From: Salinivirgaceae bacterium
GTDB lineage: Bacteria > Bacteroidota > Bacteroidia > Bacteroidales > SZUA-534
Reading direction: 5' to 3'
Length of the DNA: 64,000 bases
Assembly (NCBI GenBank): GCA_017650325.1
Contig: JAGCFC010000229.1
Span: 5,637 to 69,636 of the forward strand
In this document: positions 1-12,523 of the stretch, in pieces
Layout of the letters: every line of letters starts with the position of its first letter
Position numbering within the stretch: the stretch's first letter is position 1
Notes under the pieces: generated by a model
The model's database searches: none
What the model was told of the DNA's origin: nothing
The model's input: the letters and a program-made list of their open reading frames with translations, nothing else
Made by a program: the position numbers and the translations under genes

Positions 1-417
1 CCAGAGCATTGTGTCGGTGCGATATGGCGGCAGATAATGGATTTTGCGCCCCTTTCCCATCAATTCCGACAGCAATTTGGCCAAACCAGCCATCGGCTCG
101 CTGTGAGCCACGCCGCACGTTGCGGCAAAATCGGCCACCGACGGCAGCGGACCAGTCCACACCACATCGTCAATGTCGGCATCGTCGCCAAAAAGCCACT
201 CATCGCCCGACTCAAAATCGACAACCGCCGCCAGATTCGGTTTGCGCAATCCGAAAAAATAAAGGAAAGTGCTGTCCTGACGGAAGTTATAAGTGTTGTC
301 GGCATAGTTCATCGGAGACTCCGAATTGCCTAAAAATAGTCCCAAGCCTTTACCCATAGCCGTTCTCAACTTTGCTCGGCGGGCAACGTATGTGCCCCTT
401 GCAAATATTTCCTTCAT
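1..417 (-). CDS. Xaa-Pro aminopeptidase (M24B / aminopeptidase P family), N-terminal 139 codons; gene continues beyond window start
   Basis: Edge-truncated, so absent from the ORF track. Manual minus-strand translation from ATG (rc of 415-417): MKEIFARGTYVARRAKLRTAMGKGLGLFLGNSESPMNYADNTYNFRQDSTFLYFFGLRKPN... The NxYxFRQDSxFxY pattern is the hallmark of the aminopeptidase P/creatinase N-terminal domain. The frame stays open to base 1. Confidence 0.6.
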   Translation of the reverse strand, partial: MKEIFARGTYVARRAKLRTAMGKGLGLFLGNSESPMNYADNTYNFRQDSTFLYFFGLRKPNLAAVVDFESGDEWLFGDDADIDDVVWTGPLPSVADFAATCGVAHSEPMAGLAKLLSELMGKGRKIHYLPPYRTDTMLW

Positions 418-463
418 AACCGTATCTAAGTTTTGTTTGGCACGAATGTAGCAAAATATTAAC

Positions 464-490
464 CACGGAAAGCACGAAAAACACGGAAAG
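464..490 (+). repeat. three tandem 9-mers CACGGAAAG-CACGAAAAA-CACGGAAAG followed by AATG
   Basis: Read directly from the sequence. Same 9-mer family as the arrays flanking the GxxExxY gene at 63542-64000. Confidence 0.8.
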
Positions 491-525
491 AATGCAACCT
501 CCCTGCCACTTTGCCAATAATAGCT

Positions 526-533
526 TACTTTTG
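526..533 (+). promoter_or_regulatory. candidate Bacteroidetes -7 promoter box TACTTTTG (TAnnTTTG)
   Basis: Perfect match to the TAnnTTTG consensus, 23 nt upstream of the ATG at 557. Confidence 0.45.
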
Positions 534-556
534 CGGCCGTTTTAAATAAAAACAGA

Positions 557-811
557 ATGGAACCAATAGAAATTGTAGGCTACGCAGCCGCAGTGCTCAC
601 AACAATATCGTTTGTGCCGCAAGCCGCCAAAATCATCAAGACAAAAGACACCCAAAGTATCTCACTCGGAATGTACGCTCTGTTCTCAATCGGAGTGTTG
701 GGCTGGCTCATCTACGGCATTGTAACACGCACATTGCCAGTAGTTTTAGCAAACGGCATAACACTTTGTTTCGCCAGCGTTATCCTTGCCTACAAAATCA
801 AATACAAATGA
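557..811 (+). CDS. SemiSWEET / PQ-loop family sugar transporter (84 aa, 3 TM)
   Basis: Three hydrophobic helices and a PQ motif (SFVPQAAKIIKTK). The size is typical of bacterial SemiSWEETs. Confidence 0.8.
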   Translation: MEPIEIVGYAAAVLTTISFVPQAAKIIKTKDTQSISLGMYALFSIGVLGWLIYGIVTRTLPVVLANGITLCFASVILAYKIKYK

Positions 812-1155
812 ATTACGCATTCGGCTCCTATTATTATATGGTATGCCGATGGACAATCAGCCCTACTGATAAAATCATTCCCGTCAGAGCCAATTATTCC
901 ATCGGAAGAGCATTGCCTAATGCCGCAAACGGCGGTTTCGGAGTCGCATCGACAGGGAAAAAACACTTTTGAGAACATTTTCACAACACAAAATCCGACT
1001 GAATGTCAATCAATAGCCGCACCTCAACGACACAATGTTTTCAATCGTGCTAAATATTTTTTCCACAAAACTTTTTTATTTGCAAAAATTACTACTTTTA
1101 CAAATACGGTCATCGCAAAAAAGATGGTGCTGTGAAGGATTAGAATGAATATTGT

Positions 1156-1998
1156 ATGGTCACAAACGAAGATGCAGCGAGGTTAATTACAGCCATCAAG
1201 ATGTCGTCAACTTACGATTTCACAGACTATTCTGACAAATCGTTTTGCCGAAGGATTGAGAAAATATTGTTAGACAACAATATGGACCTCAATCAACTTA
1301 TAATTAAGATAGGCAAAGACAAGGATTTTCTGGAGCAAATGGTTAAAGACATAACGGTCAACACCACTGAGCTCTTCCGCAATCCCGAAATGTGGCAAAC
1401 ACTTCGTTATCACATACTTCCGAAATTCAGAAAGAACCGCTCGATATTCATTTGGCACGCAGGATGCTCAAGCGGTCAGGAGATTTACTCCATGCTCATT
1501 CTGCTCAACGAGTTGGGGATGTTCGACCAGGCCAAAGTGTTCGCCACCGACATCAACACCGACATGCTCGAAGCCGCCAAAGCCGGACAATACAAATATC
1601 GGTTCAATCTGGGTTATCTCGACAACTTCGACAAGGTGATAAAAGAAAACCCATTCAACTTCGAAGACAAGGTTGAGGTCCCTTACGAGAAGTATTTCGA
1701 TATCGACAAGGTGAAAGACACCATCCAGATGAAGCCGTTCCTGCGCGAAAAGGCTGTTTTCCGCAAGCACGATTTGGTGAAAGACGGCAACGTCTTCTAC
1801 TCAAAGTTCGACCTGATTTTCTGCCGCAACGTGATTATCTACTTCAACAACAAGTTGCAGAGCCGCGTTATCGACATGTTCAACAGCAGTTTGAACCGCG
1901 ACGGATACCTGATACTCGGGTCGCACGAAAGCATTTTGGGAGCCTCGGCCAACAACTTCGAGCGCTCTAAAGGTTTTTACAAGAAAAAACAGATGTAG
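1156..1998 (+). CDS. cheR: CheR-type protein-glutamate O-methyltransferase (canonical motifs)
   Basis: Has the CheR N-terminal helical domain plus SAM-binding signatures IWHAGCSSGQEIYS, VFATDINTDMLEAAKAGQY and FDLIFCRNVIIYF. Confidence 0.9.
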   Translation: MVTNEDAARLITAIKMSSTYDFTDYSDKSFCRRIEKILLDNNMDLNQLIIKIGKDKDFLEQMVKDITVNTTELFRNPEMWQTLRYHILPKFRKNRSIFIWHAGCSSGQEIYSMLILLNELGMFDQAKVFATDINTDMLEAAKAGQYKYRFNLGYLDNFDKVIKENPFNFEDKVEVPYEKYFDIDKVKDTIQMKPFLREKAVFRKHDLVKDGNVFYSKFDLIFCRNVIIYFNNKLQSRVIDMFNSSLNRDGYLILGSHESILGASANNFERSKGFYKKKQM

Positions 1999-2000
1999 TT

Positions 2001-2831
2001 ATGGTTGATAATATAGGCATAGTAGATACTCGGAATATTATCAGTGCTGTAACTGACGCTTACGGCATCGATATGTCGGATTATACATTCACGATACTCA
2101 AACGGAGGCTGATTCATGCCATAAACACCTTTGGCAGCCACTCGGCCGACGATTTCGCCGACAAAATCCGCAAAAAAATCATTACCGCCGACGATTTCCT
2201 TTACACCGTCTCACTCGAAGTGACTGAGTTCTTCCGCGACCCGTCGCTGTGGCGCGAGTTGCGCGACAAGTATATTCCGGAAATCTGCCGCACCACCGAC
2301 AGCCGTATCTGGATGCCATGCGTGACATCGGGCGACGAGCTGTTCTCGCTGGCAATCGTGCTGAACGAGGCCGGGCTGCAGGGCAAGACAAAAATCGATG
2401 CTCTTTGCCCGTCGCAAAAGCATATAGATCTTATCAAGAAAGGCGGCAACTACGACCAGAAGAAAATTGAGGTGAGCGAAGCCAACTATACACGGTACGT
2501 GGGCAAGACACAATTTGCATCGTACTACACACTCACCGACAACCGGGCCGAAATGAAACCGACATTGCTCAACGATGTGTCGATTGATGTGAACAGCGAT
2601 ATTCTGAACACCAGTATTGCCAAGAAATACAAAATGGTGGTTTACCGCAACAAACTGCTGCAATTCAACATTCCACTGTACGACAAGGTTATACGCAAAT
2701 TGATCGACAGCCTTGAAATTGGCGGCTATCTGGTGATTGGCAACATGGAAACACTTGAATATTCAGAGGCAAGCAAGAAATTGCAGATTGTGAACGCGAA
2801 CGAAAAAATTTACAAAAAAAGGGTTGACTGA
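2001..2831 (+). CDS. CheR-like paralogue with degenerate SAM-binding motifs
   Basis: Same length and N-terminal domain layout as the upstream CheR (EFFRDPSLWRELRDKYIP). The motif positions read IWMPCVTSGDELFS, IDALCPS and YKMVVYRNKLLQF. Starts 2 nt after the cheR stop. Confidence 0.75.
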   Translation: MVDNIGIVDTRNIISAVTDAYGIDMSDYTFTILKRRLIHAINTFGSHSADDFADKIRKKIITADDFLYTVSLEVTEFFRDPSLWRELRDKYIPEICRTTDSRIWMPCVTSGDELFSLAIVLNEAGLQGKTKIDALCPSQKHIDLIKKGGNYDQKKIEVSEANYTRYVGKTQFASYYTLTDNRAEMKPTLLNDVSIDVNSDILNTSIAKKYKMVVYRNKLLQFNIPLYDKVIRKLIDSLEIGGYLVIGNMETLEYSEASKKLQIVNANEKIYKKRVD

Positions 2832-3394
2832 TGAATGATTACAAAGCTATAATGATTGGAGGTTCGGCAGGTAGTTTTCAAGTAGTTACCCGAATAATTG
2901 CCGCATTGCCGGCAAACTATCCGCTGCCGATTCTGATGTGCCTGCACCGCTTGAAACACATCCGTTCGGGATTCGTAGAGGCACTTTCGATAAAATCGAA
3001 ACTGCCGATAATAGAACCTCACGACAAAGAGCCGCTCAAAGCCGGACGTATCTATCTTGCACCGGCCAATTACCACATGTACATTGAGTTAGGCAACCGA
3101 TTCTCACTCTCAACCGAAGACGTGGTCAACCATTCACGCCCGTCAATCGACTTGTCGTTCTTCTCGGCATCGTACAATTTCAAGAAGAAACTTGTGGGCA
3201 TCATATTGAGCGGTGCGAACAAAGACGGTGCCCTTGGTCTGAAAAGCGTGACCGACAACGGCGGTCTGACAATCGTTCAGGACCCCAAAGAATGCCAGGT
3301 ACCGACAATGACACAGGCGTCACTGAACGCAACAAAAGTAGATTATGTGTTCAGCACGAAACAGATTATTGATTTTTTACTTAAATTAGCCTGA
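2831..3394 (+). CDS. cheB: CheB-type protein-glutamate methylesterase, catalytic domain only (no receiver domain)
   Basis: 187 aa. Candidate Ser/His/Asp contexts are IMIGGSAGS, MCLHRLKH and SGANKDGALGL. The ATG overlaps the previous stop (TGATG at 2829-2833). Confidence 0.85.
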   Translation: MNDYKAIMIGGSAGSFQVVTRIIAALPANYPLPILMCLHRLKHIRSGFVEALSIKSKLPIIEPHDKEPLKAGRIYLAPANYHMYIELGNRFSLSTEDVVNHSRPSIDLSFFSASYNFKKKLVGIILSGANKDGALGLKSVTDNGGLTIVQDPKECQVPTMTQASLNATKVDYVFSTKQIIDFLLKLA

Positions 3395-3397
3395 TTT

Positions 3398-4153
3398 ATG
3401 GACGAACTTCTAAGATATCGGCAAAAAATAACAGGATGGACGATTCTCCTAATTGTCATCAGCATCGCCGCCATAATTATTATGCTAGCGGCCGCCCCGA
3501 ATTTTGGCAAAAACAGCTACGCCCTCATTCTCTTAGTGATTATTGTGGCGCAAATATTAATTGCTTCTAAAATCGGACTGATGGGGTCTAAAATCACATC
3601 AATCTATATGAAATCGGAAGAAGAGCGCGCCGCAGCCAGCCAAATCAACGATGACCAATACGAAAAGGAAGTCGACCAGAAGATGAAAGAAGCTACCGAT
3701 TCAGGGTTCGATCTGAAAGCCCTGCTCGACAAAACAGGCAAAAACGACGATTGGAAAAGTTTCGGCGATGCATTGCTTTATGCTTTTTCGAAACAAATGG
3801 ACGTTGCTGTCGGAATTGTTTTCAAATGCGATGACGACGAATTTAACGCAGCCGCCACATTCGCCTATTATAATAATGAATCGCCCCGGTCATTCAAACT
3901 GGGTGAAGGGCTCTCCGGACAAGTGGCAAAAGACCAAAAACCAATGTTTTTGAACGATTTACCGAGCAAAAGTTTGATGATTGTCTCGGGTCTTGGGCAA
4001 ATAGAAGTAAACAATTTGGCAATTATTCCAATTTTAAAGGACAACAATGCTGTTGGATTAATAGAAATTGCTACCTTTAAACCCTTTGAAAATGGATTTG
4101 TAAACAAAATAGACGAGATTTCTAATGCAATAGGCGGAATTGCCCCGCTATAA
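3398..4153 (+). CDS. membrane-anchored (2 TM) GAF-domain protein
   Basis: Two N-terminal TM helices (WTILLIVISIAAIIIMLAAA; YALILLVIIVAQILIASKIGLMG). The C-terminal GAF-like region (GEGLSGQVAKDQKPMFLNDLP...AVGLIEIATF) is paralogous to the GAF of the next gene. Confidence 0.7.
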   Translation: MDELLRYRQKITGWTILLIVISIAAIIIMLAAAPNFGKNSYALILLVIIVAQILIASKIGLMGSKITSIYMKSEEERAAASQINDDQYEKEVDQKMKEATDSGFDLKALLDKTGKNDDWKSFGDALLYAFSKQMDVAVGIVFKCDDDEFNAAATFAYYNNESPRSFKLGEGLSGQVAKDQKPMFLNDLPSKSLMIVSGLGQIEVNNLAIIPILKDNNAVGLIEIATFKPFENGFVNKIDEISNAIGGIAPL

Positions 4154-4166
4154 AGAGTGAAGCACA

Positions 4167-6794
4167 ATGGAAACGTTTATCGACAAAATAAAACGGATAT
4201 TTATATATAAGGTGAACAACAGGATAAACTTCACCCCCACCTTGGTTGGTTTGGGCGTGGTGATATTAATTCTGTCGTGGATTTTAGGGTTCATCAAATG
4301 CGACTACGCAGTATCGCTTGACAGCCTTGTACAATTACACAAGACATCACCTGTATACTTCATCATCGATCTTCTGCCTATAGTTTTAGGAATATTGGGG
4401 TATGCATTCACCAAATCGCAGCAAGAAACAATCGATTCACTTGAAACTCAGATTTCGGAAAAAGACCACGTCATCAACATGAACGCCCTCTTTGCCAAGA
4501 AGATTGGTGAAGGCGATCTTGCCGCAAACGACGCCGAAATTGACGACAACGACATCTTAGGCCACTCGCTGAAAAAAATGCGGGAGAACCTTGCTCTGAC
4601 TAACGAAAAAGAGAAAGAACAGAACTGGATTGCTAAAGGAAAAGATATGGTTTCCGACATCCTGCGTTTGCAAAACGACCTCGACAATCTGTCGTATCTC
4701 ACTTTGGTTGAACTCATTAAGTACATCGATGTCATTCAGGGTGCATTCTACATCTACAACGAAGAAGACCAAACACTTGAGAACAAAGCCACTTACGCCT
4801 ACAACCGCAGGAAATATCTCGACACAAAATTCCAAATTGGCGAAGGCCTTGTAGGACAGTGCGCCTATGAGATGGACGTCATCTACCGCCGCGAGATTCC
4901 AGATGAGTTTGTAACCATAACAAGCGGCATTTTGGGCGACAAAAAGCCAAATTCGCTGCTGTTGGTTCCCCTCATCACCGATGAGAAGCTACAAGGTGTG
5001 CTTGAATTTGCATCGCTGAAAGACGATATAAGCGAACTGAAAATCAGATTCTTGAAAGAGTTGAGCGACATTATTGCCCGCACAATCTTCAACCTTAAAG
5101 TAAACACCCGGACAGAAAAACTGCTGAAAGACGCGCAGGAAATGACCGAGGAACTTCAGGAGAACGAAGAAGAGTTGCGCCAGAATGCCGAGGAGATGCG
5201 CGCCACACACGAGGAGCTGGAAAAAACCAACTCGAATCTGCAAACGCAAATCCGCGCTGTCGAAAACGCTCAGAAGCGCCAGCATGCGTTGCTTGAAAAT
5301 GCATCCGAGATTATCTCGATTTATGACGAAGACTTGAAACTTAAATACATAAGTCCGTCAGTAACAAACATCTACGGATACACCATACAAGAAATGATTG
5401 ACGGAAAAGACATCGACCGTCTGACCGCCAAAGGAGTGAAAGAATTCACCGAGACGTTAGCCGAAGTTGTAAAAGATGCCAGTTCAACTGCCACCATCCA
5501 ATACACTTACATGCGTAAAGACGGACAGAAGATTTACATTGAATCGACATGCCGCAACTTGCTCGACGACCCCGCCATCAACGGACTTATTATAAACTCC
5601 CGCGATATCACCGAACGCAAACGCGCCGAGAAAGAGGAGCGTATGAAGAGTAAGATGCAATCGCTATCGGAAAACTCACTCGACTTGATTCTGCGAATCG
5701 GTACCAACGGACAGTTCTTCTACGCCAATCCTATGGTAAAAACATTCACCGGGATTGAAATTTCCGATATCATAAACAAGAATCTCGATGATGTTCAATT
5801 TGAACCGACCATCAAAGAATTCTTCAGCGATGCCGTAAAGACCGTACGAAGCACAAACAACAAACACGAGGCCGAAGTAACCTTCCCGACAAACTTTGGC
5901 GACCGCATTATGCAGGTAAACGCCATCCCTGAGTTCAGCGATGACAACAAAGAGTTGGAGACCATTTTGTTTGTGGCCCACGATATTACCGAGCAGAAGT
6001 TGGTTGAGATTGAAATTCAGGAGAAAAATAAGGCCATCACCGAGAGTATCAACTACGCAAAACGCATTCAAACTGCCATATTGCCGAACACCAAGTTCAT
6101 ACAAGAGTTCCTGCCGAAGTCATTCATCTTCTACCGTCCGAAAGACGTGGTCAGCGGTGACTTCCCATGGTTCTTCAAGAAAGGCGATGACTTGTTTATT
6201 GCAGTTGTCGACTGCACCGGACACGGTGTTCCTGGAGCTTTGCTGTCGTTCATTGGCTACTTCACTCTGAACAATGTGGTTGACCACTACGACAACATTG
6301 ACGCAGGTGTAATTCTCGACAAACTGCATGAAGGCGTCCGCACCACTCTGAAACAAGACCGAATCGACACCGAAGCTCGCGATGGTATGGATGTTGCACT
6401 CTGCAAAATAAACTTGAAGAAAAATATTTTGGAATTCGCAGGTGCCCACAGACCACTTTACTTGCTGAGAGGCAATGAGTTGACCCAATACAAGGGCAGT
6501 CATAAGGCTATTGGTGGCATACCATTAGGTAAAAAACCTGAAGCGGATTTTGAAAATCATTTAATAAATTTGGAGCCCAAAGACAGAGTGTTCTTCTTCT
6601 CCGATGGTTTACCCGACCAAGTGAGCGGCGAGACAGGACGGAAATATCAGGCAAGCCGTATTCGCGATTTGCTTGTGGAACACTATGATGTTGAAATTTA
6701 CGACTATGAAAAAATCATATACGATGATTTCATAGCCTACAAAGGCGACTATAAACAAGTCGATGATATATTGTTAATAGGAATTGAATTTTAA
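4167..6794 (+). CDS. SiaA-like sensor phosphatase: 2TM - GAF - Glu-rich coiled coil - PAS - PAS - PP2C/SpoIIE domain
   Basis: GAF (GEGLVGQCAYEMDVIYRREIP), coiled coil (EELQENEEELRQNAEEMRATHEELEKTNSNLQ), two PAS-like blocks and a SpoIIE signature (AKRIQTAILP...VSGDFPWFF...AVVDCTGHGVPGALLS...DGLPDQ). Confidence 0.85.
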   Translation: METFIDKIKRIFIYKVNNRINFTPTLVGLGVVILILSWILGFIKCDYAVSLDSLVQLHKTSPVYFIIDLLPIVLGILGYAFTKSQQETIDSLETQISEKDHVINMNALFAKKIGEGDLAANDAEIDDNDILGHSLKKMRENLALTNEKEKEQNWIAKGKDMVSDILRLQNDLDNLSYLTLVELIKYIDVIQGAFYIYNEEDQTLENKATYAYNRRKYLDTKFQIGEGLVGQCAYEMDVIYRREIPDEFVTITSGILGDKKPNSLLLVPLITDEKLQGVLEFASLKDDISELKIRFLKELSDIIARTIFNLKVNTRTEKLLKDAQEMTEELQENEEELRQNAEEMRATHEELEKTNSNLQTQIRAVENAQKRQHALLENASEIISIYDEDLKLKYISPSVTNIYGYTIQEMIDGKDIDRLTAKGVKEFTETLAEVVKDASSTATIQYTYMRKDGQKIYIESTCRNLLDDPAINGLIINSRDITERKRAEKEERMKSKMQSLSENSLDLILRIGTNGQFFYANPMVKTFTGIEISDIINKNLDDVQFEPTIKEFFSDAVKTVRSTNNKHEAEVTFPTNFGDRIMQVNAIPEFSDDNKELETILFVAHDITEQKLVEIEIQEKNKAITESINYAKRIQTAILPNTKFIQEFLPKSFIFYRPKDVVSGDFPWFFKKGDDLFIAVVDCTGHGVPGALLSFIGYFTLNNVVDHYDNIDAGVILDKLHEGVRTTLKQDRIDTEARDGMDVALCKINLKKNILEFAGAHRPLYLLRGNELTQYKGSHKAIGGIPLGKKPEADFENHLINLEPKDRVFFFSDGLPDQVSGETGRKYQASRIRDLLVEHYDVEIYDYEKIIYDDFIAYKGDYKQVDDILLIGIEF

Positions 6795-6811: not shown

Positions 6812-7390
6812 ATGGATGGGAACAAAGACTTTCTAGAATTTGTCTATAGTTTTAACGAGTCGATGGAAAGCAAGGACGTTAAACTTGTTTACAAGGGAGA
6901 AATAACTCACCAAGTAACAAAAGCCTTTACATCGATAACCGAGACCAACATGATGGTTGCGGAAGAATCGAACTCCGTTCAGAAGAAGGTGTTCCATGTG
7001 ATTGTGGAATTTCTTCAGAACATAAGCAAACATGCCGACTACATGACCAACGAAGAAAGTCACGAAGAAGGCAGCGGAGTGTTCTTGCTTTGCAAAGACG
7101 ACGACAACTACGTCATTACAACTGGTAACGTGCTTCTCAAAGAAAAAGAGAATGCCATAGCCAACGTTCTTGACAAGATAAACTCGCTTGACAAAGAGGG
7201 ACTGAAAGCGCTGTACAAACAACAAATAAAAGAAGGTCGACTGTCAGAAAAAGGCGGTGCCGGCCTTGGTTTCATCGATATAGCAAAGAAGACTGGTAAT
7301 TCATTGGATTACAAATTTGTTCCCATCAACAATGAATTCTCATTCTTCATTATATCGTCGACCATTTCGAGAACTCAAAATTTTGATTAA
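6812..7390 (+). CDS. SiaB-family (HATPase-like) protein kinase
   Basis: 192 aa. The ATP-lid-like motif EKGGAGLGFIDIAKKTG and the overall pattern match what I recall of SiaB-family kinases. The position between a PP2C gene and a DUF1987 gene also fits. Confidence 0.75.
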   Translation: MDGNKDFLEFVYSFNESMESKDVKLVYKGEITHQVTKAFTSITETNMMVAEESNSVQKKVFHVIVEFLQNISKHADYMTNEESHEEGSGVFLLCKDDDNYVITTGNVLLKEKENAIANVLDKINSLDKEGLKALYKQQIKEGRLSEKGGAGLGFIDIAKKTGNSLDYKFVPINNEFSFFIISSTISRTQNFD

Positions 7391-7410: not shown

Positions 7411-7794
7411 ATGGAAGTTATAAAGATTGTTGGAACGGATGATACTCCCAGTGTAACTCTTGATGTTGCAAACGAAATATTCGAAATATCAGGTAGGTCG
7501 TTGCCAGAAGATGTTGCTGTATTCTATGAGCCAATTCTCGACTGGATTGACCGCTATTCAGAAGAAGCATCCGGTAAAACCATTTTCAATTTCAAGTTGG
7601 TGTACTTCAACACAGCATCATCGAAAATGATTCTGGACATACTTCTGAAGTTGGAAGAGATGCACGAAGCAGGCAAAGACGTGCTTGTAAGATGGCATTA
7701 TCCTGAAGATGACGAAGATATGGAAGAGGCTGGCGAAGAGTACGCTGACATTGTTGATGTGCCTTTCGAGCAAATCAGCTATTCACTTGACTAA
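7411..7794 (+). CDS. DUF1987 / SiaC-family regulatory phosphoprotein
   Basis: 127 aa with GTDDTPSV..ISGRSLPEDVAVFYEPILDWI...YFNTASSK...WHYPEDDEDMEEAGEEY, the typical DUF1987 pattern. Thr68 lies in the YFNT motif (codon 7612-7614). Confidence 0.85.
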   Translation: MEVIKIVGTDDTPSVTLDVANEIFEISGRSLPEDVAVFYEPILDWIDRYSEEASGKTIFNFKLVYFNTASSKMILDILLKLEEMHEAGKDVLVRWHYPEDDEDMEEAGEEYADIVDVPFEQISYSLD

Positions 7795-7829: not shown

Positions 7830-10800
7830 ATGAGTGAAGAGATTCTGAAAGCCTTAATGCAACTGTTTGCAATCATTGCAAAACAGGACGGAGGCGTAAA
7901 AGATAGCGAGATCGACTTTGTCGAGAATTTCCTTACTTCGCAATTGAGTTCCGACTTTGTTGAGGAGTATCTGGCATTATTCTACAAGCACGTAGGCATA
8001 AAGGATCGTAATTCACTTCATGAAAATTCGGAAGAAGAGGTCAAACTCACCTCGGTTAAGGACTCTGTTAAGATTCTTGGTATTTGCAAGAAAATCAACA
8101 AGACCCTTACCCAACAGCAGAAGGTGGTTGTTTTGGTCAGATTGTTCGAATTGGTGGCAGCCGACAGGCAGTTCACCGACCAGCGAATGGCCATTATCAA
8201 CACCGCAGCCGAAGTATTTAACATCTCGCCCGAAGAATTCAAAAGCACTGAAGATTTTTGTCGTAAAGAGACTGTCAAAGAACTTGACATTCCAAACATT
8301 CTTATCATCAACGACAAAGAACTTGAACTTGAACAAGCCAAGCACATCCAGATTGAGGAACTCGACAAAGAACTTGTCATTCTTCAGATTAAGAGCGTCG
8401 ACCTTTACTTTACGAAGTATCTGGGCTCACACGAGCTTGTGCTCAACGGTCTGCCGATAAAAGGCAACAAAATTTATCTGTTCGCCAACGGTAGCGCCAT
8501 CCGTTTCCCGAAAGGCAAACCGGTGTACTACAGCGATGTGGTGTCGAAATATCTGTCGGACATCACGTCGGCAAAAGTCACTTACAACGTCAACGATCTG
8601 GAATTCAAGTTCAAGAATGGTGCTATAGGTCTGAGAAACATCAACTTGTCGGAAGAGCAAGGACGCCTTGTAGGTATCATGGGCGCCAGTGGTGCGGGCA
8701 AAACCACACTGCTCAACGTACTTACCGGCAACGAACGTCCGTCGAAGGGCGAAGTGCTGATAAACGGAATCAATCTGCACACCGAAAAGGAGAAGATGGA
8801 GGGCGTTATCGGCTACATTCCGCAAGACGACCTTCTGATTGAAGAACTCACCGTTTACGAAAACCTTTATTTCAACGCCAAGTTGTGTTTCAAGGACATG
8901 ACGGAGGAAGAGATAAAGGAACGTTGCGAGAAAACACTCGCAAACCTTGGCCTGCTCGACAGGAAAGACCTGAAGGTAGGCTCGCCACTGCACAAGACTA
9001 TCAGTGGTGGTCAGCGCAAACGACTTAACATTGCGCTGGAACTTATCCGAGAACCGCCAATCCTGTTTGTCGATGAGCCGACATCGGGCTTGTCGTCACG
9101 CGACTCTGAGAACGTAATGGACTTACTCCGCGAGCTTGCAATGAAGGGCAAACTCGTATTTGTCGTAATCCACCAGCCATCATCGGAAATCTACAAGATG
9201 TTCGATAAGATGGTTATCCTCGACACTGGCGGATACCTTATATATTATGGTAACCCTGTTGATGCAGTAACCTACTTCAAAAAGATTGACGGCCAACTCA
9301 ACGCTGATGTCGGCGAATGCCCATCGTGCGGTAACGTTAATCCGGAGCTCATCTTTAATATTATTGATGCTCAGGTGGTTGACGAATTCGGTAAATACAC
9401 CAACAAACGAAAAGTCACACCGCCCGAATGGGAAAAGAAACGCGAGCAGAGCATCATCAGTCAAACCGACCCGAAATTTCTTGAGAAATACGCCGAAGAG
9501 CAGGCTCGAATTGCCAAAGGCGATGAAGATGCTCAGGAAAAAGCAAAAGCACTGGAGCGTCTCGACTTAAAATTCCATGAAAAATACATGGAATGCGTTG
9601 AAAAAATCAAACTCAAAGACATTCACGAAACTCCGCCAAAATCACTCGATATTCCAGGGTGGTTCCAGCAAGTTAAGATTTATTTCAAACGCGATTTTCT
9701 GGCAAAAATCAGCAACACTCAATATCTGGTTCTGAATATACTCGAGGCTCCGGCTTTGGGATTAATTCTTTCGTTCCTAATCAGATACATTGCCGACCCC
9801 AACTCGAATGTTTACATATTCCGAGAGAATGCGAACATTCCAATCTACATTTTCATGAGCTTGATTGTGGCAATGTTCCTTGGTTTGATGGTGAGCGGCG
9901 AGGAAATATTCAAAGACCAGAAGATTCTAAATCGCGAGAAATTCTTGAATCTTAGCCGCTCGACATACCTTGTGGCCAAGATTTCGATTTTGTTCATCAT
10001 ATCGGCCATTCAATCGATATTGTTTGTGCTGGTTGCCAATTCAATACTAAGCGTTAGAGGATTATGGTTTGAATACTGGTGGGCAATGTTTACCATAGCC
10101 ACATTCTCGAATCTGGTGGGTCTGATATTGTCATCGACATTCAACTCGGCGGTTACCATCTACATTATGATTCCGCTTGTGATGATTCCGCAGATGGCTT
10201 TGGGCGGCGCCATGTTCAGTTTCGACAAGTTAAACCGCGCTATAGGTAGCATCGAAGGTGTGCCGCCAATTTGCGAATTCATTGCAACCCGCTGGGTATA
10301 TGAAGGTTTGATGGTCCGTCAATTCAAAGACAATGAATACGAGAAGAAATTCTACGATATCGATAAAGAGGTAAGCGTTGGCGATTTCAAGTCGACACAA
10401 TATCTGCCAGAATTGGAAGACCGTGTTGAATATTGCGCTTCGACAAAATTCCAAGAACTTACGTCAAAAGAGGATATTGAAGACTACAAATGGAAACTGG
10501 CGCTGCTCAAAAACGAATTGTCGAAAGAGATGGTTCGCGTGCCGGACATTGAATTCAACTATTTGGAAGACCTTACTCCCGAGAGATTCACTCCAGAAGT
10601 TGGAATTAACACACAGGAGTATATCCAAAAACTGAATAACTACTATTCGGACATGTGTGAGAATGCCAAAAACAAGAAGAACGCCATTATCGACTATTGG
10701 AACGAGAAGAATCCCAACTCACACAACCGCCTCAAACAGGCCTACCAAAACGAGGCTGTTGACGACATTGTTTGGAAATCGCTCGAAAAGACACTTGTCA

Positions 10801-11105
10801 AATCGTACAAAGACCATTTGATTCAAATGACAAAACCGATTTACGAGACTCCGTGGGCAAACAACATTTTCGACTATCGCGCACAATTCTACTCACCAGT
10901 CAAGTTCTTCCTGGGCCACGAGTTCAACACCTTCTGGTTCAACATGTGGGTGGTATGGCTTATGACAGCATTCTGCTACGTGGCATTGTACTACGACTGG
11001 CTGAAACGTGCAATGGACTTCTTCCCTGAACTAATAGGAAATCTGAAGAAACGAATTGCGACTTTGTTCAGTAAAAAGGCGGCAAAACAAGCCGTAGAGA
11101 AATAG
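7830..11105 (+). CDS. ABCG-like fused ATPase-permease with N-terminal TerB-like domain and long C-terminal extension
   Basis: TerB-like helices (LFAIIAKQDGGVKDSEIDFVENFL; LFELVAADRQFTDQRMAII), Walker A GASGAGKTT, signature SGGQRKR, Walker B ILFVDEPTSGL, an ABC-2-type 6-TM region and a terminal TM helix FWFNMWVVWLMTAFCYVALYY. Confidence 0.85.
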   Translation: MSEEILKALMQLFAIIAKQDGGVKDSEIDFVENFLTSQLSSDFVEEYLALFYKHVGIKDRNSLHENSEEEVKLTSVKDSVKILGICKKINKTLTQQQKVVVLVRLFELVAADRQFTDQRMAIINTAAEVFNISPEEFKSTEDFCRKETVKELDIPNILIINDKELELEQAKHIQIEELDKELVILQIKSVDLYFTKYLGSHELVLNGLPIKGNKIYLFANGSAIRFPKGKPVYYSDVVSKYLSDITSAKVTYNVNDLEFKFKNGAIGLRNINLSEEQGRLVGIMGASGAGKTTLLNVLTGNERPSKGEVLINGINLHTEKEKMEGVIGYIPQDDLLIEELTVYENLYFNAKLCFKDMTEEEIKERCEKTLANLGLLDRKDLKVGSPLHKTISGGQRKRLNIALELIREPPILFVDEPTSGLSSRDSENVMDLLRELAMKGKLVFVVIHQPSSEIYKMFDKMVILDTGGYLIYYGNPVDAVTYFKKIDGQLNADVGECPSCGNVNPELIFNIIDAQVVDEFGKYTNKRKVTPPEWEKKREQSIISQTDPKFLEKYAEEQARIAKGDEDAQEKAKALERLDLKFHEKYMECVEKIKLKDIHETPPKSLDIPGWFQQVKIYFKRDFLAKISNTQYLVLNILEAPALGLILSFLIRYIADPNSNVYIFRENANIPIYIFMSLIVAMFLGLMVSGEEIFKDQKILNREKFLNLSRSTYLVAKISILFIISAIQSILFVLVANSILSVRGLWFEYWWAMFTIATFSNLVGLILSSTFNSAVTIYIMIPLVMIPQMALGGAMFSFDKLNRAIGSIEGVPPICEFIATRWVYEGLMVRQFKDNEYEKKFYDIDKEVSVGDFKSTQYLPELEDRVEYCASTKFQELTSKEDIEDYKWKLALLKNELSKEMVRVPDIEFNYLEDLTPERFTPEVGINTQEYIQKLNNYYSDMCENAKNKKNAIIDYWNEKNPNSHNRLKQAYQNEAVDDIVWKSLEKTLVKSYKDHLIQMTKPIYETPWANNIFDYRAQFYSPVKFFLGHEFNTFWFNMWVVWLMTAFCYVALYYDWLKRAMDFFPELIGNLKKRIATLFSKKAAKQAVEK

Positions 11106-11178: not shown

Positions 11179-12099
11179 ATGAATAGAAGAATTTTTACAG
11201 CAATTGCAATACTTATTGCAAGCGGTTCGCTACTGATGACAAACTGTCAGAGTGATAACAAGGCTAAGAAAAACGACGACTTCACCATTCCTGATTCAAT
11301 CTTCAAAGACAAACCTTTGATGATTTCGAAGGAAGCCATGAATGATATTATTGATAATATGTCATCGCCGGTTGAGATGGCCGCTTTGATTAAATCGACA
11401 GGTGTGCCATTCAATCAGAAATTCCTTGCATCGACAAGTAAGGTCGACAATCTGGACACCGACTTCAAACAAGCTTTGAACCTCGGTATTTATGGCTGCG
11501 ACCTCGGTTACTTGAACATGTATGAGAAGACCGGCTCGATTATCAGCAGCATGCAGGCTATCAAGAAATTGTCGGACCAATTGCGAATCGGGCACTTCTT
11601 CGATTTCAACACAATCAAACGTTTGGCAACCAACAACGAGAACATCGACTCGCTGATGTATATTTCGGTATCGAGCTTCAACAACATGGACGAATATCTG
11701 CGCGAGCACAACCGCAGCGATATCAGCTCGTTGCTTGTGACCGGCATGTGGATTGAGGGCATGTATCTGGCTTGCCAGGTTGTAAAGGAGAAACCAAACG
11801 AGACTCTTCGCGAGCGCATTGGTGACTCAAAAATAGTGTTGAATGACCTTCTCCTGATTCTGAAGAACTACAAATCGAACTCAGCGTTCGCCAATCTGGT
11901 TAAGGAAATTGAGAAAATCAAGAAAGAATATGATAATGTAACCATAATCGTTAAATCAGGCGAACCGGAAATGATAGAGATTGACGGCATGCTGATGTTC
12001 CAATCTCACGACGAACAGATTGTAGACATTTCGGATGAGACATTGGCAAAAATCATTGCATCAATCGAAAACACACGTTCAATGATAATCAACCTGTAA
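11179..12099 (+). CDS. lipoprotein of unknown function (paralogue of 35321-36157)
   Basis: Signal peptide plus Cys (ASGSLLMTNC). Clear similarity to the 35321-36157 product: SPVEMAALIK..VPF..QALNLGIYGCDLGY / SLLVTGMWIEGMYLAC versus SPLEMFIRMK..VPF..QAVNMGVYASDMAY / CLVVAGAWIESLYLCL. Confidence 0.7.
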   Translation: MNRRIFTAIAILIASGSLLMTNCQSDNKAKKNDDFTIPDSIFKDKPLMISKEAMNDIIDNMSSPVEMAALIKSTGVPFNQKFLASTSKVDNLDTDFKQALNLGIYGCDLGYLNMYEKTGSIISSMQAIKKLSDQLRIGHFFDFNTIKRLATNNENIDSLMYISVSSFNNMDEYLREHNRSDISSLLVTGMWIEGMYLACQVVKEKPNETLRERIGDSKIVLNDLLLILKNYKSNSAFANLVKEIEKIKKEYDNVTIIVKSGEPEMIEIDGMLMFQSHDEQIVDISDETLAKIIASIENTRSMIINL

Positions 12100-12100
12100 T

Positions 12101-12523
12101 ATGAAACACGCTCTCATAATAATATCAACACTTCTGCTTTCGTTAACCTGCAATCATGCTCTTGCACAAAGTGATGATTTGGTGAATGTATGTGCATTAG
12201 GTATCGGGAACGCCACATATTTGAAAGACTTCAAAGTGAAGTTGCCGGCCAACACTACTACTCCGCAAAAGCTAAGCGTTATTCTTACCAAAGGCATGAT
12301 ATACAAATTTGTAGTATGCAACGCCGAAGGTTACGAAGGAAAAGCAGTAATACAATTGTCGGATGCTGGAAATACTCTTGTTTCGAACTTGAAAGCTGAC
12401 GGTTCGTTTGTTGAAGCGGTTGGTTTTTCATGCCAGAAAACAGGTATGTACAACATCTTCTGCTCATTCAAGAACAACAAGGAAGGTGCGGCTGTGATAA
12501 TAATGTCGTACATAACAAAATAA
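12101..12523 (+). CDS. small secreted protein of unknown function (distant paralogue of 34691-35308)
   Basis: Signal peptide (LLLSLTCNHALAQ). Starts 2 nt after the previous gene. Shares the LSVILTKGMIYKFVVCNAE pattern with LNVVLYSKQNYRLFVACEQ in 34691-35308. Confidence 0.6.
   Translation: MKHALIIISTLLLSLTCNHALAQSDDLVNVCALGIGNATYLKDFKVKLPANTTTPQKLSVILTKGMIYKFVVCNAEGYEGKAVIQLSDAGNTLVSNLKADGSFVEAVGFSCQKTGMYNIFCSFKNNKEGAAVIIMSYITK

Follow-up and report, generated by a model that had tools for sequence, protein, structure and literature searches.

The window, ie the whole 64-kb stretch of DNA analysed, carries on its forward strand an operon in which two cheR genes, a cheB gene and a gene for a small GAF protein lie upstream of a sensor phosphatase, and genes for a SiaB-family kinase and a SiaC phosphoprotein lie downstream of it. 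The genes and the domains of the sensor are as follows.

1156-1998, + strand: CheRa (CheR1 in the earlier note on this DNA), a CheR methyltransferase, 280 aa; Pfam CheR, 2.4e-41
2001-2831, + strand: CheRb, a second, more diverged CheR, 276 aa; Pfam CheR, 2.4e-18, and CheR_N
2831-3394, + strand: CheB, catalytic domain only, receiver-less, 187 aa; Pfam CheB_methylest, 1.5e-47
3398-4153, + strand: small protein with two TM helices and a GAF domain; Pfam GAF_2
3617-3640, + strand: near-match EEERAAAS within the small GAF protein; lacks conservation, probably chance
4167-6794, + strand: sensor phosphatase, 875 aa, with TM, HAMP-like linker, GAF, acidic helix, PAS, PAS and PP2C (SiaA-like); Pfam, NCBIfam
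4677-5087, + strand: GAF domain of the sensor, aa 171-307; Pfam GAF_2, 8.1e-11
5277-5999, + strand: two PAS domains of the sensor, aa 371-490 and 497-611; Pfam PAS_8, PAS_3, PAS_9 and PAS
6183-6788, + strand: SpoIIE/PP2C phosphatase domain of the sensor, aa 673-874; Pfam SpoIIE, 2.7e-18
6812-7390, + strand: SiaB-family protein kinase (Pfam DUF6272); NCBIfam SiaB_fam_kinase, 163.5 bits, cut-off 85
7411-7794, + strand: SiaC (DUF1987) phosphoprotein; Pfam SiaC, 1.6e-41

The SAM-binding motifs of CheRa are intact and align with those of B. subtilis CheR (5FTW, E 2e-27); CheRb matches the same PDB entry with E 2.5e-15. The Ser-His-Asp triad of CheB is also intact, ie the Ser of GGSAG, the His and the Asp of DG are all kept in an alignment to 3SFT. 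The SiaB-family kinase and SiaC match PDB 6KKO_A (E 3e-16) and 6KKO_C (E 1e-18), respectively, and the sensor matches the NCBIfam SiaA-like PP2C model with E 5e-52. The operon encodes the SiaABC set together, with the NCBIfam SiaA and SiaC equivalog models matched below their cut-offs. SiaC is presumed to be the substrate of both the PP2C domain and the SiaB-like kinase. A TerB-ABC transporter fusion follows here and there is no SiaD diguanylate cyclase. No MCP, CheA or CheW is encoded in the 64-kb window.

A Pfam scan of the sensor gave no MCPsignal, CHASE3, HisKA, HATPase, REC, CheB or CheR domain. A C-terminal pentapeptide for tethering CheR is not evident either, as the protein ends inside its PP2C domain (...LLIGIEF). 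There are 120 sensor orthologues among the matches listed. One relative, P0083, has an N-terminus near-identical to that of the window sensor but an HATPase_c output. The small GAF protein always adjoins the sensor, and is present in the CheR-CheB operons of related loci. The earlier note had drawn attention to a near-match to the methylation consensus in this protein, E74-EERAAA-S81; it does lie at nt 3617-3640, but is lost in orthologues of 26-28% identity, and in an alignment of five orthologues EEERAAAS was seen only in close relatives. The small protein was rejected as an alternative methyl acceptor on the grounds that this stretch is not conserved.

The acidic segment

The segment of interest, TEKLLKDAQEMTEELQENEEELRQNAEEMRATHEELEKTNSNLQTQIRAVENAQKRQ, corresponds to aa 316-372 of the 875-aa reading frame at 4167-6794 (+ strand), and to nt 5112-5282. 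The range 5107-5310 proposed previously holds to that extent, the remainder being short out-of-frame flanks. Its position between the GAF domain (aa 171-307) and the first PAS domain (from aa 371), also proposed previously, agrees with Pfam, which places the PP2C/SpoIIE domain (aa 673-874) downstream. The coil itself is not covered by any Pfam or NCBIfam model. A precomputed PF28175 match is present in three orthologues and was not reproduced in a Pfam scan of one.

5034-5297, + strand: predicted continuous alpha-helix, spanning the C-terminal helix of GAF and the coil up to the PAS N-cap; AlphaFold2
5112-5282, + strand: Glu-rich heptad segment, aa 316-372; matches the family module consensus
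5148-5216, + strand: core with four EE pairs, aa 328-350 (23 residues), at heptad positions f and g; shuffles, 94 coils
5169-5174, + strand: E335-E336; Glu/Gln alternation at E336
5190-5207, + strand: E342-E343-M-R-A-T, match to EExxA[ST]; orthologue conservation, family EE[LM]xAT

The coordinates of E342-E343-M-R-A-T, nt 5190-5207, are exactly those of the earlier note, and its caution that a lone motif match could be chance was justified: EExxA[ST] occurs once in the window reading frames (about 20,150 aa) against 0.67 expected, which is not significant alone, and it appears in 3% of shuffles of the segment. The additional EE pairs mentioned there make a regular series. There are four pairs, E328/329, E335/336, E342/343 and E349/350, at an exact spacing of seven residues, an arrangement found in only 7.5e-5 of segment shuffles. 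Just one of the four, E342-E343-M-R-A-T347, fits the EExxA[ST] consensus. The stretch is strongly acidic: 12 of 30 residues are Glu, and each chain has a net charge of about -9. No tandem repeat was found at the DNA level across the segment, and a recent DNA tandem repeat was rejected as the origin of the heptads for that reason. Antisense reading frames run over the segment inside the conserved sensor gene, eg 4989-5285 (- strand), and were treated as by-products of the GAA/GAG-rich codons.

Ninety-four unique coils, taken from orthologues with overall identities as low as 60%, served to assess conservation, and the EE pairs are near-invariant in them. E342 and T347 are present in all 94, E343, E335 and E329 in 93 each, and A346 in 82; the R-Q-N and A-T residues are also near-invariant. 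At E336 there is Glu in 72 coils, Gln in 20 and another residue in two. At MCP sites the modified residue is the second of a pair, for which the gene often specifies Gln. Here the MCP-like alternation of Glu and Gln falls on E336, the second residue of the second pair, and not on E343, and because of it E336 is a candidate amidated or methylated site. In a larger set of 379 modules, the second positions of the outer pairs are Gln in 15% and 8%, and the first residues of those pairs vary mainly to Asp. The coil of one relative (P0056, locus L004) is much diverged, with only an EQ and an EE pair remaining, and CheR-CheR-CheB is retained there.

AlphaFold2, applied to aa 150-500, predicts one continuous helix over aa 290-377 (model residues 141-228), with a pLDDT of 80-91 in the helix block. 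Neither an MCP-like hairpin nor a four-helix bundle is present in the prediction. The heptad register, assigned by hand from the sequence, puts L or M at position a and N/N/T/T at position d, with the Glu pairs at f and g. When the module profile was run against the PDB, all the matches were designed coiled coils, and neither an MCP nor a sensor structure was among them. The coil is probably of the parallel coiled-coil type and not a segment of an MCP four-helix bundle. Full-text literature searches for the motif strings gave no match.

Relatives of the module and their gene neighbourhoods

The coil is a single instance of a module that recurs throughout Bacteroidota; the consensus is QxEELxAQEEELRQNMEELxATQEEMxR, and 239 representative proteins were found to have the module. 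In the best 150 of these 239 relatives the same GAF module precedes it in 126. Multi-module proteins have up to nine copies, one ahead of each PAS domain. CheR and CheB matches lie within 10 kb at 57-59 of 84 module-bearing loci, and in nearly all the SpoIIE-type orthologues a CheR(-CheR)-CheB-small GAF array is directly upstream. A gene is placed between two cheR genes at 23 loci, and at 22 of them it encodes a HAMP-GAF-coil-PAS receptor with a canonical module and no output domain. GAF-coil-PAS proteins also occur inside Che clusters at six loci (L031, L032, L057, L064, L065 and L072), together with CheW, CheR, CheD and CheB-REC, and CheA in some. An MCP signalling domain is absent from the range searched at 83 of the 84 related loci, the exception being L064.

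The closest plasmid homologues of the window CheB are receiver-less CheBs in operons of the form CHASE3-GAF-coil-HisKA / CheR / CheB, and these CHASE3-GAF-coil-kinase operons are alphaproteobacterial. In an Agrobacterium kinase of this kind the GAF domain and coil align colinearly with those of the window sensor (27% identity over 244 aa, E 2e-19), the GAF domains being homologous, and hhalign of the two coils gave a probability of 65%. The GAF-coil module is the sole element common to four kinds of CheR/CheB-linked neighbourhood, with outputs that are PP2C, histidine kinase or none; SiaB, SiaC, TerB-ABC and the small GAF protein are missing from the other CheR/CheB-linked contexts. About 20 module loci in Cytophagales show neither CheR nor CheB within 10 kb on either side, and the coil persists at two SpoIIE-type loci, L039 and L040, that have no CheR/CheB upstream. 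At these loci, therefore, conservation of the coil is independent of cis-encoded enzymes.

A proposed methyl-accepting helix and its alternatives

CheR/CheB methylation is textbook knowledge for chemoreceptors, and Bacteroidota are mostly without flagella and canonical chemoreceptors. We infer that the Glu-rich helix is probably a methyl-accepting signalling helix and the target of the adjoining CheR and CheB, and put the probability at roughly 0.6. This reading draws on the proximity of GAF-coil proteins to CheR/CheB in several independent genomic contexts, on the near-invariance of the EE pairs and the alternation of E336 with Gln, on the intact CheB triad and CheRa SAM motifs, and on the absence from the window of any MCP, CheA or CheW that could be a substrate of the two kinds of enzyme. 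It also draws on a precedent, as RsbM methylates the signalling helix of RsbK (PMC4574943). The candidate methyl-accepting site of the earlier note is supported in part: it lies in a conserved heptad helix adjoined by two CheRs and a receiver-less CheB with an intact triad, with no MCP nearby. The match to EExxA[ST] is confined to one of four pairs. In MCPs, CheR and CheB act on an antiparallel four-helix bundle. The predicted continuous helix here is unlike that and counts against the methyl-acceptor reading, as do the fit of only one of the four pairs to the consensus, the failure of the module profile to match any MCP in the PDB, the persistence of the coil at the Cytophagales loci and at L039 and L040 with no CheR/CheB close by, the divergence of the P0056 coil while CheR-CheR-CheB is retained, and the possibility that a helix with a polar core is strongly conserved for structural reasons alone.

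If the helix is a methyl acceptor, the segment would form the middle of a long helix, probably a parallel dimer, that carries the input from the membrane and GAF domain to the PAS-PAS-PP2C output. The Glu pairs at f and g, beside a weak polar core, would be the substrates of the operon CheRs and of the receiver-less CheB, and E336, which is Gln-polymorphic, and E343, which is within EEMRAT, would be the likeliest sites. Methylation of a Glu at position g would remove a charge from the helix-helix seam, and the resulting change in helix packing or rotation could bias PP2C towards its active or its inactive state. PP2C would act on SiaC and the SiaB-family kinase would re-phosphorylate it, so that methylation would set the gain or the adaptation level of the partner switch.

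The helix may instead be a structural element, an S-helix-like parallel coiled coil between GAF and PAS/PP2C in which the Glu pairs and polar core tune stability and are never methylated, the substrate of CheR and CheB being a different protein, encoded in the operon or elsewhere. We regard this as rather unlikely, although it would explain the module at the Cytophagales loci and at L039 and L040 with no CheR/CheB nearby, the diverged P0056 coil beside retained enzymes, and the lack of detected sequence similarity to MCP adaptation regions. A purely structural role gives no reason to expect Gln in place of Glu at E336. The GAF-coil module is what the four CheR/CheB-linked neighbourhoods share, the remaining operon proteins (SiaB, SiaC, TerB-ABC and small GAF) drop out in other contexts, conservation is lacking in the linker of the small GAF protein, and there is no MCP in range in the window or at 83 of 84 related loci. 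The helix of RsbK, moreover, is methylated (PMC4574943).

The acidity of the segment, 12 Glu in 30 residues and about -9 per chain, would also suit a docking or ion-binding surface, to which CheR and CheB may bind without modifying it; its ligand might be a divalent cation, the SiaB-like kinase or the small TM-GAF protein. The constant company of the small GAF protein is in keeping with this, as is the intramolecular interaction of the RsbK helix with a receiver domain (PMC4574943). However, the module has no partner that varies along with it from one context to another, and up to nine copies, one per PAS, are better suited to a generic linker or modification site; we consider such a surface improbable. 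That the motif is a chance match in a low-complexity Glu-rich stretch with no specific function agrees with the count of one against 0.67 expected, but the residues are near-invariant even where orthologues share 60% identity overall, hundreds of copies show the module consensus, the four-pair pattern is very rare in shuffles (7.5e-5) and there is no DNA tandem repeat. The conservation data effectively refute it, and we give it hardly any credence.

To return to the methyl-acceptor reading, in the literature found, CheR/CheB-type methylation outside chemoreceptors is demonstrated only for B. cereus RsbK. The present locus is a compact case, with two CheRs, one receiver-less CheB, a core of 23 residues, and SiaC phosphorylation as an easily measured output. 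If the reading is correct, reversible Glu methylation tunes a PP2C partner switch directly, chemotaxis-style tuning acts on a switch that is not chemotactic, and the orphan cheR and cheB genes of non-motile gut and rumen Bacteroidales are explained. The string QEEELRQNMEELxATQEEM would then be an annotation signature for hundreds of multi-PAS proteins of unknown role. A wider proposal is more tentative, and we think the odds are somewhat against it: a distinct Bacteroidota class of methyl-accepting receptors, with a GAF domain and one to nine acidic helices, each before a PAS domain, which CheR, CheB and CheD would mark at several sites so that methylation serves as a memory. The memory would be read through the fused PP2C and SiaB/SiaC and not through CheA, here possibly controlling the TerB-ABC transporter, and output-less relatives would act via partners. 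Such a class would amount to sensory adaptation grafted onto a Ser/Thr phospho-switch.

Comparison with known systems

The likeness to MCP adaptation helices comprises the EE pairs at a spacing of seven residues, the match of E342-E343-M-R-A-T347 to the MCP consensus Glu-Glu-X-X-Ala-Ser/Thr, the presence of Gln instead of the second Glu of a pair in some orthologues, and the genes for CheR and CheB alongside the sensor, with CheD in relatives. In contrast to MCPs, the sensor is without the signalling domain, hairpin, four-helix bundle and tethering pentapeptide, and no sequence relationship between the coil and MCPs is detectable. The output side resembles SiaABCD of P. aeruginosa in having a PP2C sensor, a SiaB-family kinase and a SiaC homologue, with the TerB-ABC transporter fusion instead of SiaD. 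Neither the GAF-coil module nor CheR/CheB is known from the siaABCD operon of P. aeruginosa.

Like the coil here, which joins GAF to PAS, the S-helix is a stretch of roughly 40-60 helical residues that links two signalling domains, and the two have in common the heptad periodicity and a predicted continuous helix. The central heptad of an S-helix bears the ERT signature that defines it (Anantharaman, Balaji & Aravind 2006, PMC1592074). That signature is missing from the window coil and from the family consensus, which has EE[LM]xATQEE there.

The MAC proteins, which were stated in 2022 to be experimentally uncharacterised, are comparable in that a methyl-accepting coiled coil associated with CheB/CheR has been proposed for them outside MCPs. 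The earlier note had mentioned an EELxxxNEEL type of linker in CheB-CheR fusions, and it was verified on three plasmid-borne proteins: the MAC1-type CheB-CheR-coil-PAS-kinase proteins have heptad NEEL repeats just ahead of the PAS domain. CheB-CheR fusions exist in Cytophagales, on a Spirosoma plasmid. The profiles of the window coil and the MAC NEEL coil align in hhalign with a probability of 70% and E 4e-5, but the Asn is at position 6 of the heptad in the former and position 7 in the latter. MAC proteins occur in organisms possibly lacking other chemotaxis genes, and are described with receptor and kinase functions, whereas the window sensor has a phosphatase output. CheB and CheR are not fused to the sensor as they are in MAC1, and since no CheB or CheR domain was fused to a coil relative in the best 150 of the 239, these are not of MAC1 type. 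The operon does have the MAC2 trait of a coil-bearing sensor with separate CheB and CheR.

The methylatable signalling helix of RsbK, with RsbM, is reportedly the subject of work by Chen et al. in 2012. B. cereus RsbK (CHASE3-HAMP-GAF-S-helix-kinase), whose helix is methylated by the CheR-like RsbM, feeds a PP2C partner switch (PMC4574943). The window sensor is without the CHASE3, kinase and receiver domains of RsbK, and its PP2C is fused to it via two PAS domains, whereas in the RsbK system a separate REC-PP2C protein, RsbY, is used. The partner switch is SiaB/SiaC in place of RsbW/RsbV/sigma-B, and there are two CheRs and a dedicated CheB where RsbM is described as an orphan without an esterase. 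Both systems have a helical linker after a GAF domain, through which the signal passes to the output, and a gene for a CheR-like methyltransferase (here two) beside that of the sensor. At the end of both pathways is a PP2C with a partner-switch phosphoprotein as its substrate, here presumably SiaC. RsbK is a homodimer. Taken together, the window sensor is probably a new variant of the RsbK/MAC kind with a PP2C/SiaBC output. Its likeness to RsbK appears to be one of shared architecture with a proteobacterial intermediary, the Agrobacterium protein, which is the only one of the two with demonstrated sequence homology to the window sensor and which has the RsbK domain order, ie CHASE3, GAF, coil, HisKA, HATPase and REC.

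The sensor and its Glu-rich helix

An earlier note had read an EEXXAT match in the Glu-rich segment between the GAF domain and the first PAS domain of the sensor as a candidate methyl-accepting site. Its sequence facts (segment, EEMRAT, and EEERAAAS at nt 3617-3640, a near-match within the small 2-TM GAF protein) are all correct as stated, and the segment does lie within its bounds of 5107-5310, the edges of which are slightly out of frame. The features concerned, all on the + strand, are:

557-811, small PQ-loop/SWEET-like membrane protein, 84 aa, upstream of the operon
4167-6794, sensor ORF (from translation), 875 aa; Pfam domains GAF (aa 171-307), PAS regions (aa 371-490 and 497-611), SpoIIE/PP2C (aa 673-874)
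5112-5282, Glu-rich segment TEKLL...AQKRQ, aa 316-372
5190-5207, EEMRAT match
7830-11105, TerB domain-ABC ATPase-ABC-2 membrane domain fusion, 1091 aa, directly after SiaC
11179-12099 and 12101-12523, proteins of 306 and 140 aa, no Pfam/NCBIfam match

A lone EExxA[ST] match is not beyond expectation, as the note itself had cautioned: the window's ORFs (~20,150 aa) contain one where 0.67 would be expected, and shuffling the segment produces one in 3% of cases. Unlike that motif, the arrangement of the four Glu-Glu pairs (328/329, 335/336, 342/343 and 349/350), spaced by exactly seven residues, is beyond chance, occurring in 7.5e-5 of segment shuffles. No DNA tandem repeat was found beneath the heptads.

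An AlphaFold2 model of aa 150-500 (40 aligned sequences, mean pLDDT 83.7) has aa 290-377 as one uninterrupted predicted helix, which starts as the last GAF helix, continues as the coil and reaches into the PAS N-cap. A register assigned by hand would give the a positions to L330, L337, M344, L351 and L358 and the d positions to N333, N340, T347 and T354, probably a weak polar core, with the Glu pairs at f and g; in a parallel dimer the second Glu of each pair would then flank the seam. Neither a Pfam or NCBIfam model covering the coil nor a solved structure resembling it was found.

Conservation and the module family

Conservation of the Glu pairs, a check proposed in the note, was examined in 94 non-identical coil sequences, taken from orthologues with an overall identity of 60% or more. 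It holds for E342 and E350, which are invariant together with T347, and for E329, E335 and E343 (93/94 each); E328 is variable, and E336 is Glu in 72 and Gln in 20. R338, Q339 and N340 are kept in 90-94 and A346 in 82.

With the 64-aa coil as query, phmmer gave 239 matches at E <= 1e-3 among 1.8 billion representative proteins, most of them bearing 2-9 copies of the module. The consensus of 379 copies is Q-[ATN]-E-E-L-[RKQ]-A-Q-E-E-E-[LM]-R-Q-N-[ML]-E-E-[LM]-x-A-T-Q-E-E-[ML]-x-R, and EE[LM]xAT is therefore a feature of the family. The same GAF module lies upstream of the coil in 126 of the best 150 matches, and none of the 150 has a CheB or CheR domain. The 47 relatives sampled are built as (Cache or TM)-HAMP-GAF-(coil-PAS)n, mostly without a recognisable output domain, and the module-bearing genomic loci recovered, 80 in number, all belong to Bacteroidota. 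One relative, P0122 (1989 aa), has nine matched stretches, its copies about 150-170 aa apart among PAS domains. In another, P0123, copies recur at 70-aa intervals, which leave no room for PAS domains in between, suggesting that the module can form arrays alone. The precomputed annotation of orthologues P0098, P0102 and P0116 includes PF28175, which a scan of P0098 against Pfam did not return.

Gene neighbourhoods

Upstream of the sensor lie, in order, two CheR genes, a receiver-less CheB and the small TM-GAF protein (Pfam). The Ser-His-Asp triad of CheB and the SAM motifs of CheRa are intact; CheRb is more diverged than CheRa. Downstream, one gene encodes a kinase of the SiaB family, which scores above the NCBIfam cut-off and matches 6KKO_A at E 3e-16, and another a homologue of SiaC (6KKO_C, E 1e-18); the PP2C domain of the sensor is SiaA-like. 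The 64-kb window was found to have neither an MCP signalling domain nor CheA, CheW or CheD. The TerB-ABC fusion, kept after SiaC in 52/84 loci, may be what SiaC acts on here, replacing the Pseudomonas SiaD cyclase. Genes the size of the 306- and 140-aa pair follow the transporter in L001, L002 and L004 also, and the 84-aa gene has the same place in L003.

Almost every SpoIIE-type orthologue is directly preceded by CheR(-CheR)-CheB-smallGAF. The cheR genes are adjacent in the window and 18 other loci; 23 loci have an extra gene between them (eg L013, 4462-6840), in 22 a HAMP-GAF-coil-PAS receptor with a canonical module and no output domain (620-900 aa, Cache/HAMP-GAF-coil-PAS-coil-PAS). At L031, L032, L065 and L072 a second Che-type cluster (about 1-6000), CheW-CheR-kinase-CheD-CheB(REC)-[GAF-coil-PAS], immediately precedes the CheR-CheR-CheB-sensor operon; its kinase-like protein has 299 aa and its GAF-coil-PAS-PAS protein 590-625 aa. 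These four loci have three CheR and two CheB each, and no MCP in range. L057 and L064 have similar clusters with CheA; an MCP is in range at L064 alone of all six. Among plasmid proteins, the nearest homologues of the window's CheB are receiver-less CheBs of alphaproteobacterial operons, ordered [CHASE3-GAF-coil-HisKA-HATPase-REC3]-CheR-CheB-[REC-kinase]. The coil of these CHASE3 proteins reads TQRQTEELQVQGEELRVSNEELEEQ; their GAF and coil are colinear with those of the sensor (27% identity over 244 aa, E 2e-19), and hhalign of the two coil profiles gave a probability of 65%. No element other than the GAF-coil module is found in all these CheR/CheB-linked neighbourhoods.

One further relative, P0083 (L003, 10001-12676), is 89% identical to the sensor over the first 71% (TM-GAF-coil-PAS-PAS), in the same CheR-CheR-CheB-smallGAF setting, and ends in a HATPase_c kinase domain, not PP2C. 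Its gene is at a contig end, so this ending may be either a domain swap or an assembly chimera.

A probable methyl-accepting helix and its known counterparts

That the Glu-rich helix serves in signalling and accepts methyl groups has, in our estimate, a probability of about 0.6. CheR would neutralise, and CheB restore, the charge on the g-position Glu; this change would bias the PP2C domain, which with the SiaB-like kinase would set the phosphorylation state of SiaC. The Glu/Gln alternation at E336 is what a site deamidated by CheB or CheD would show, and E343, all but invariant, lies within the sole EExxA[ST] match. The proposed site is borne out in part: for it are a conserved segment and a recurrent CheR/CheB association; against it are a predicted non-MCP geometry and coils kept without nearby enzymes. 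In about 20 Cytophagales loci the module is conserved with neither CheR nor CheB nearby. L039 and L040 (9059-11689; Draconibacterium-like MAGs) keep the coil, sensor, SiaB, SiaC and transporter, and CheR and CheB are absent from the preceding 9 kb. Conversely, L004 retains the enzymes while its sensor, P0056 (8606-11233; 71% identical overall), has a coil far more diverged than the remainder, KELKESEIALLQEKEQLQETREEVEK, suggesting that the coil was replaced locally or came under weaker constraint. The EEERAAAS near-match, not being conserved, also counts against this reading, as does the absence of the S-helix ERT signature from the coil; the predicted continuous helix would likewise be unlike the MCP bundle.

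The linker EELxxxNEEL, given in the note for CheB-CheR fusions, was confirmed on three plasmid-borne CheB-CheR-coil-PAS_10-kinase proteins (Nostoc, Spirosoma, Ketogulonicigenium), in heptad runs such as NEELQSTNEELETAKEEIQATNEEL. Against the window coil family these gave an hhalign probability of 70%, with a different Asn register. The MAC proteins of Wuichet & Zhulin, to which CheB and CheR are either fused (MAC1) or adjacent (MAC2), are termed experimentally uncharacterised (10.1101/2022.05.07.491037; PMC6943060). In B. cereus, the CheR-like RsbM methylates the signalling helix of RsbK (CHASE3-HAMP-GAF-S-helix-kinase-REC), as established with 14C-SAM in vitro and by genetics; RsbK acts through the REC-PP2C protein RsbY on a partner switch (PMC4574943; PMC12848376). 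Our literature search found no published link of CheR or CheB with SiaABC-type systems. The sensor coil is a candidate methylatable helix of the RsbK/MAC kind, and what is new is its PP2C/SiaBC output.
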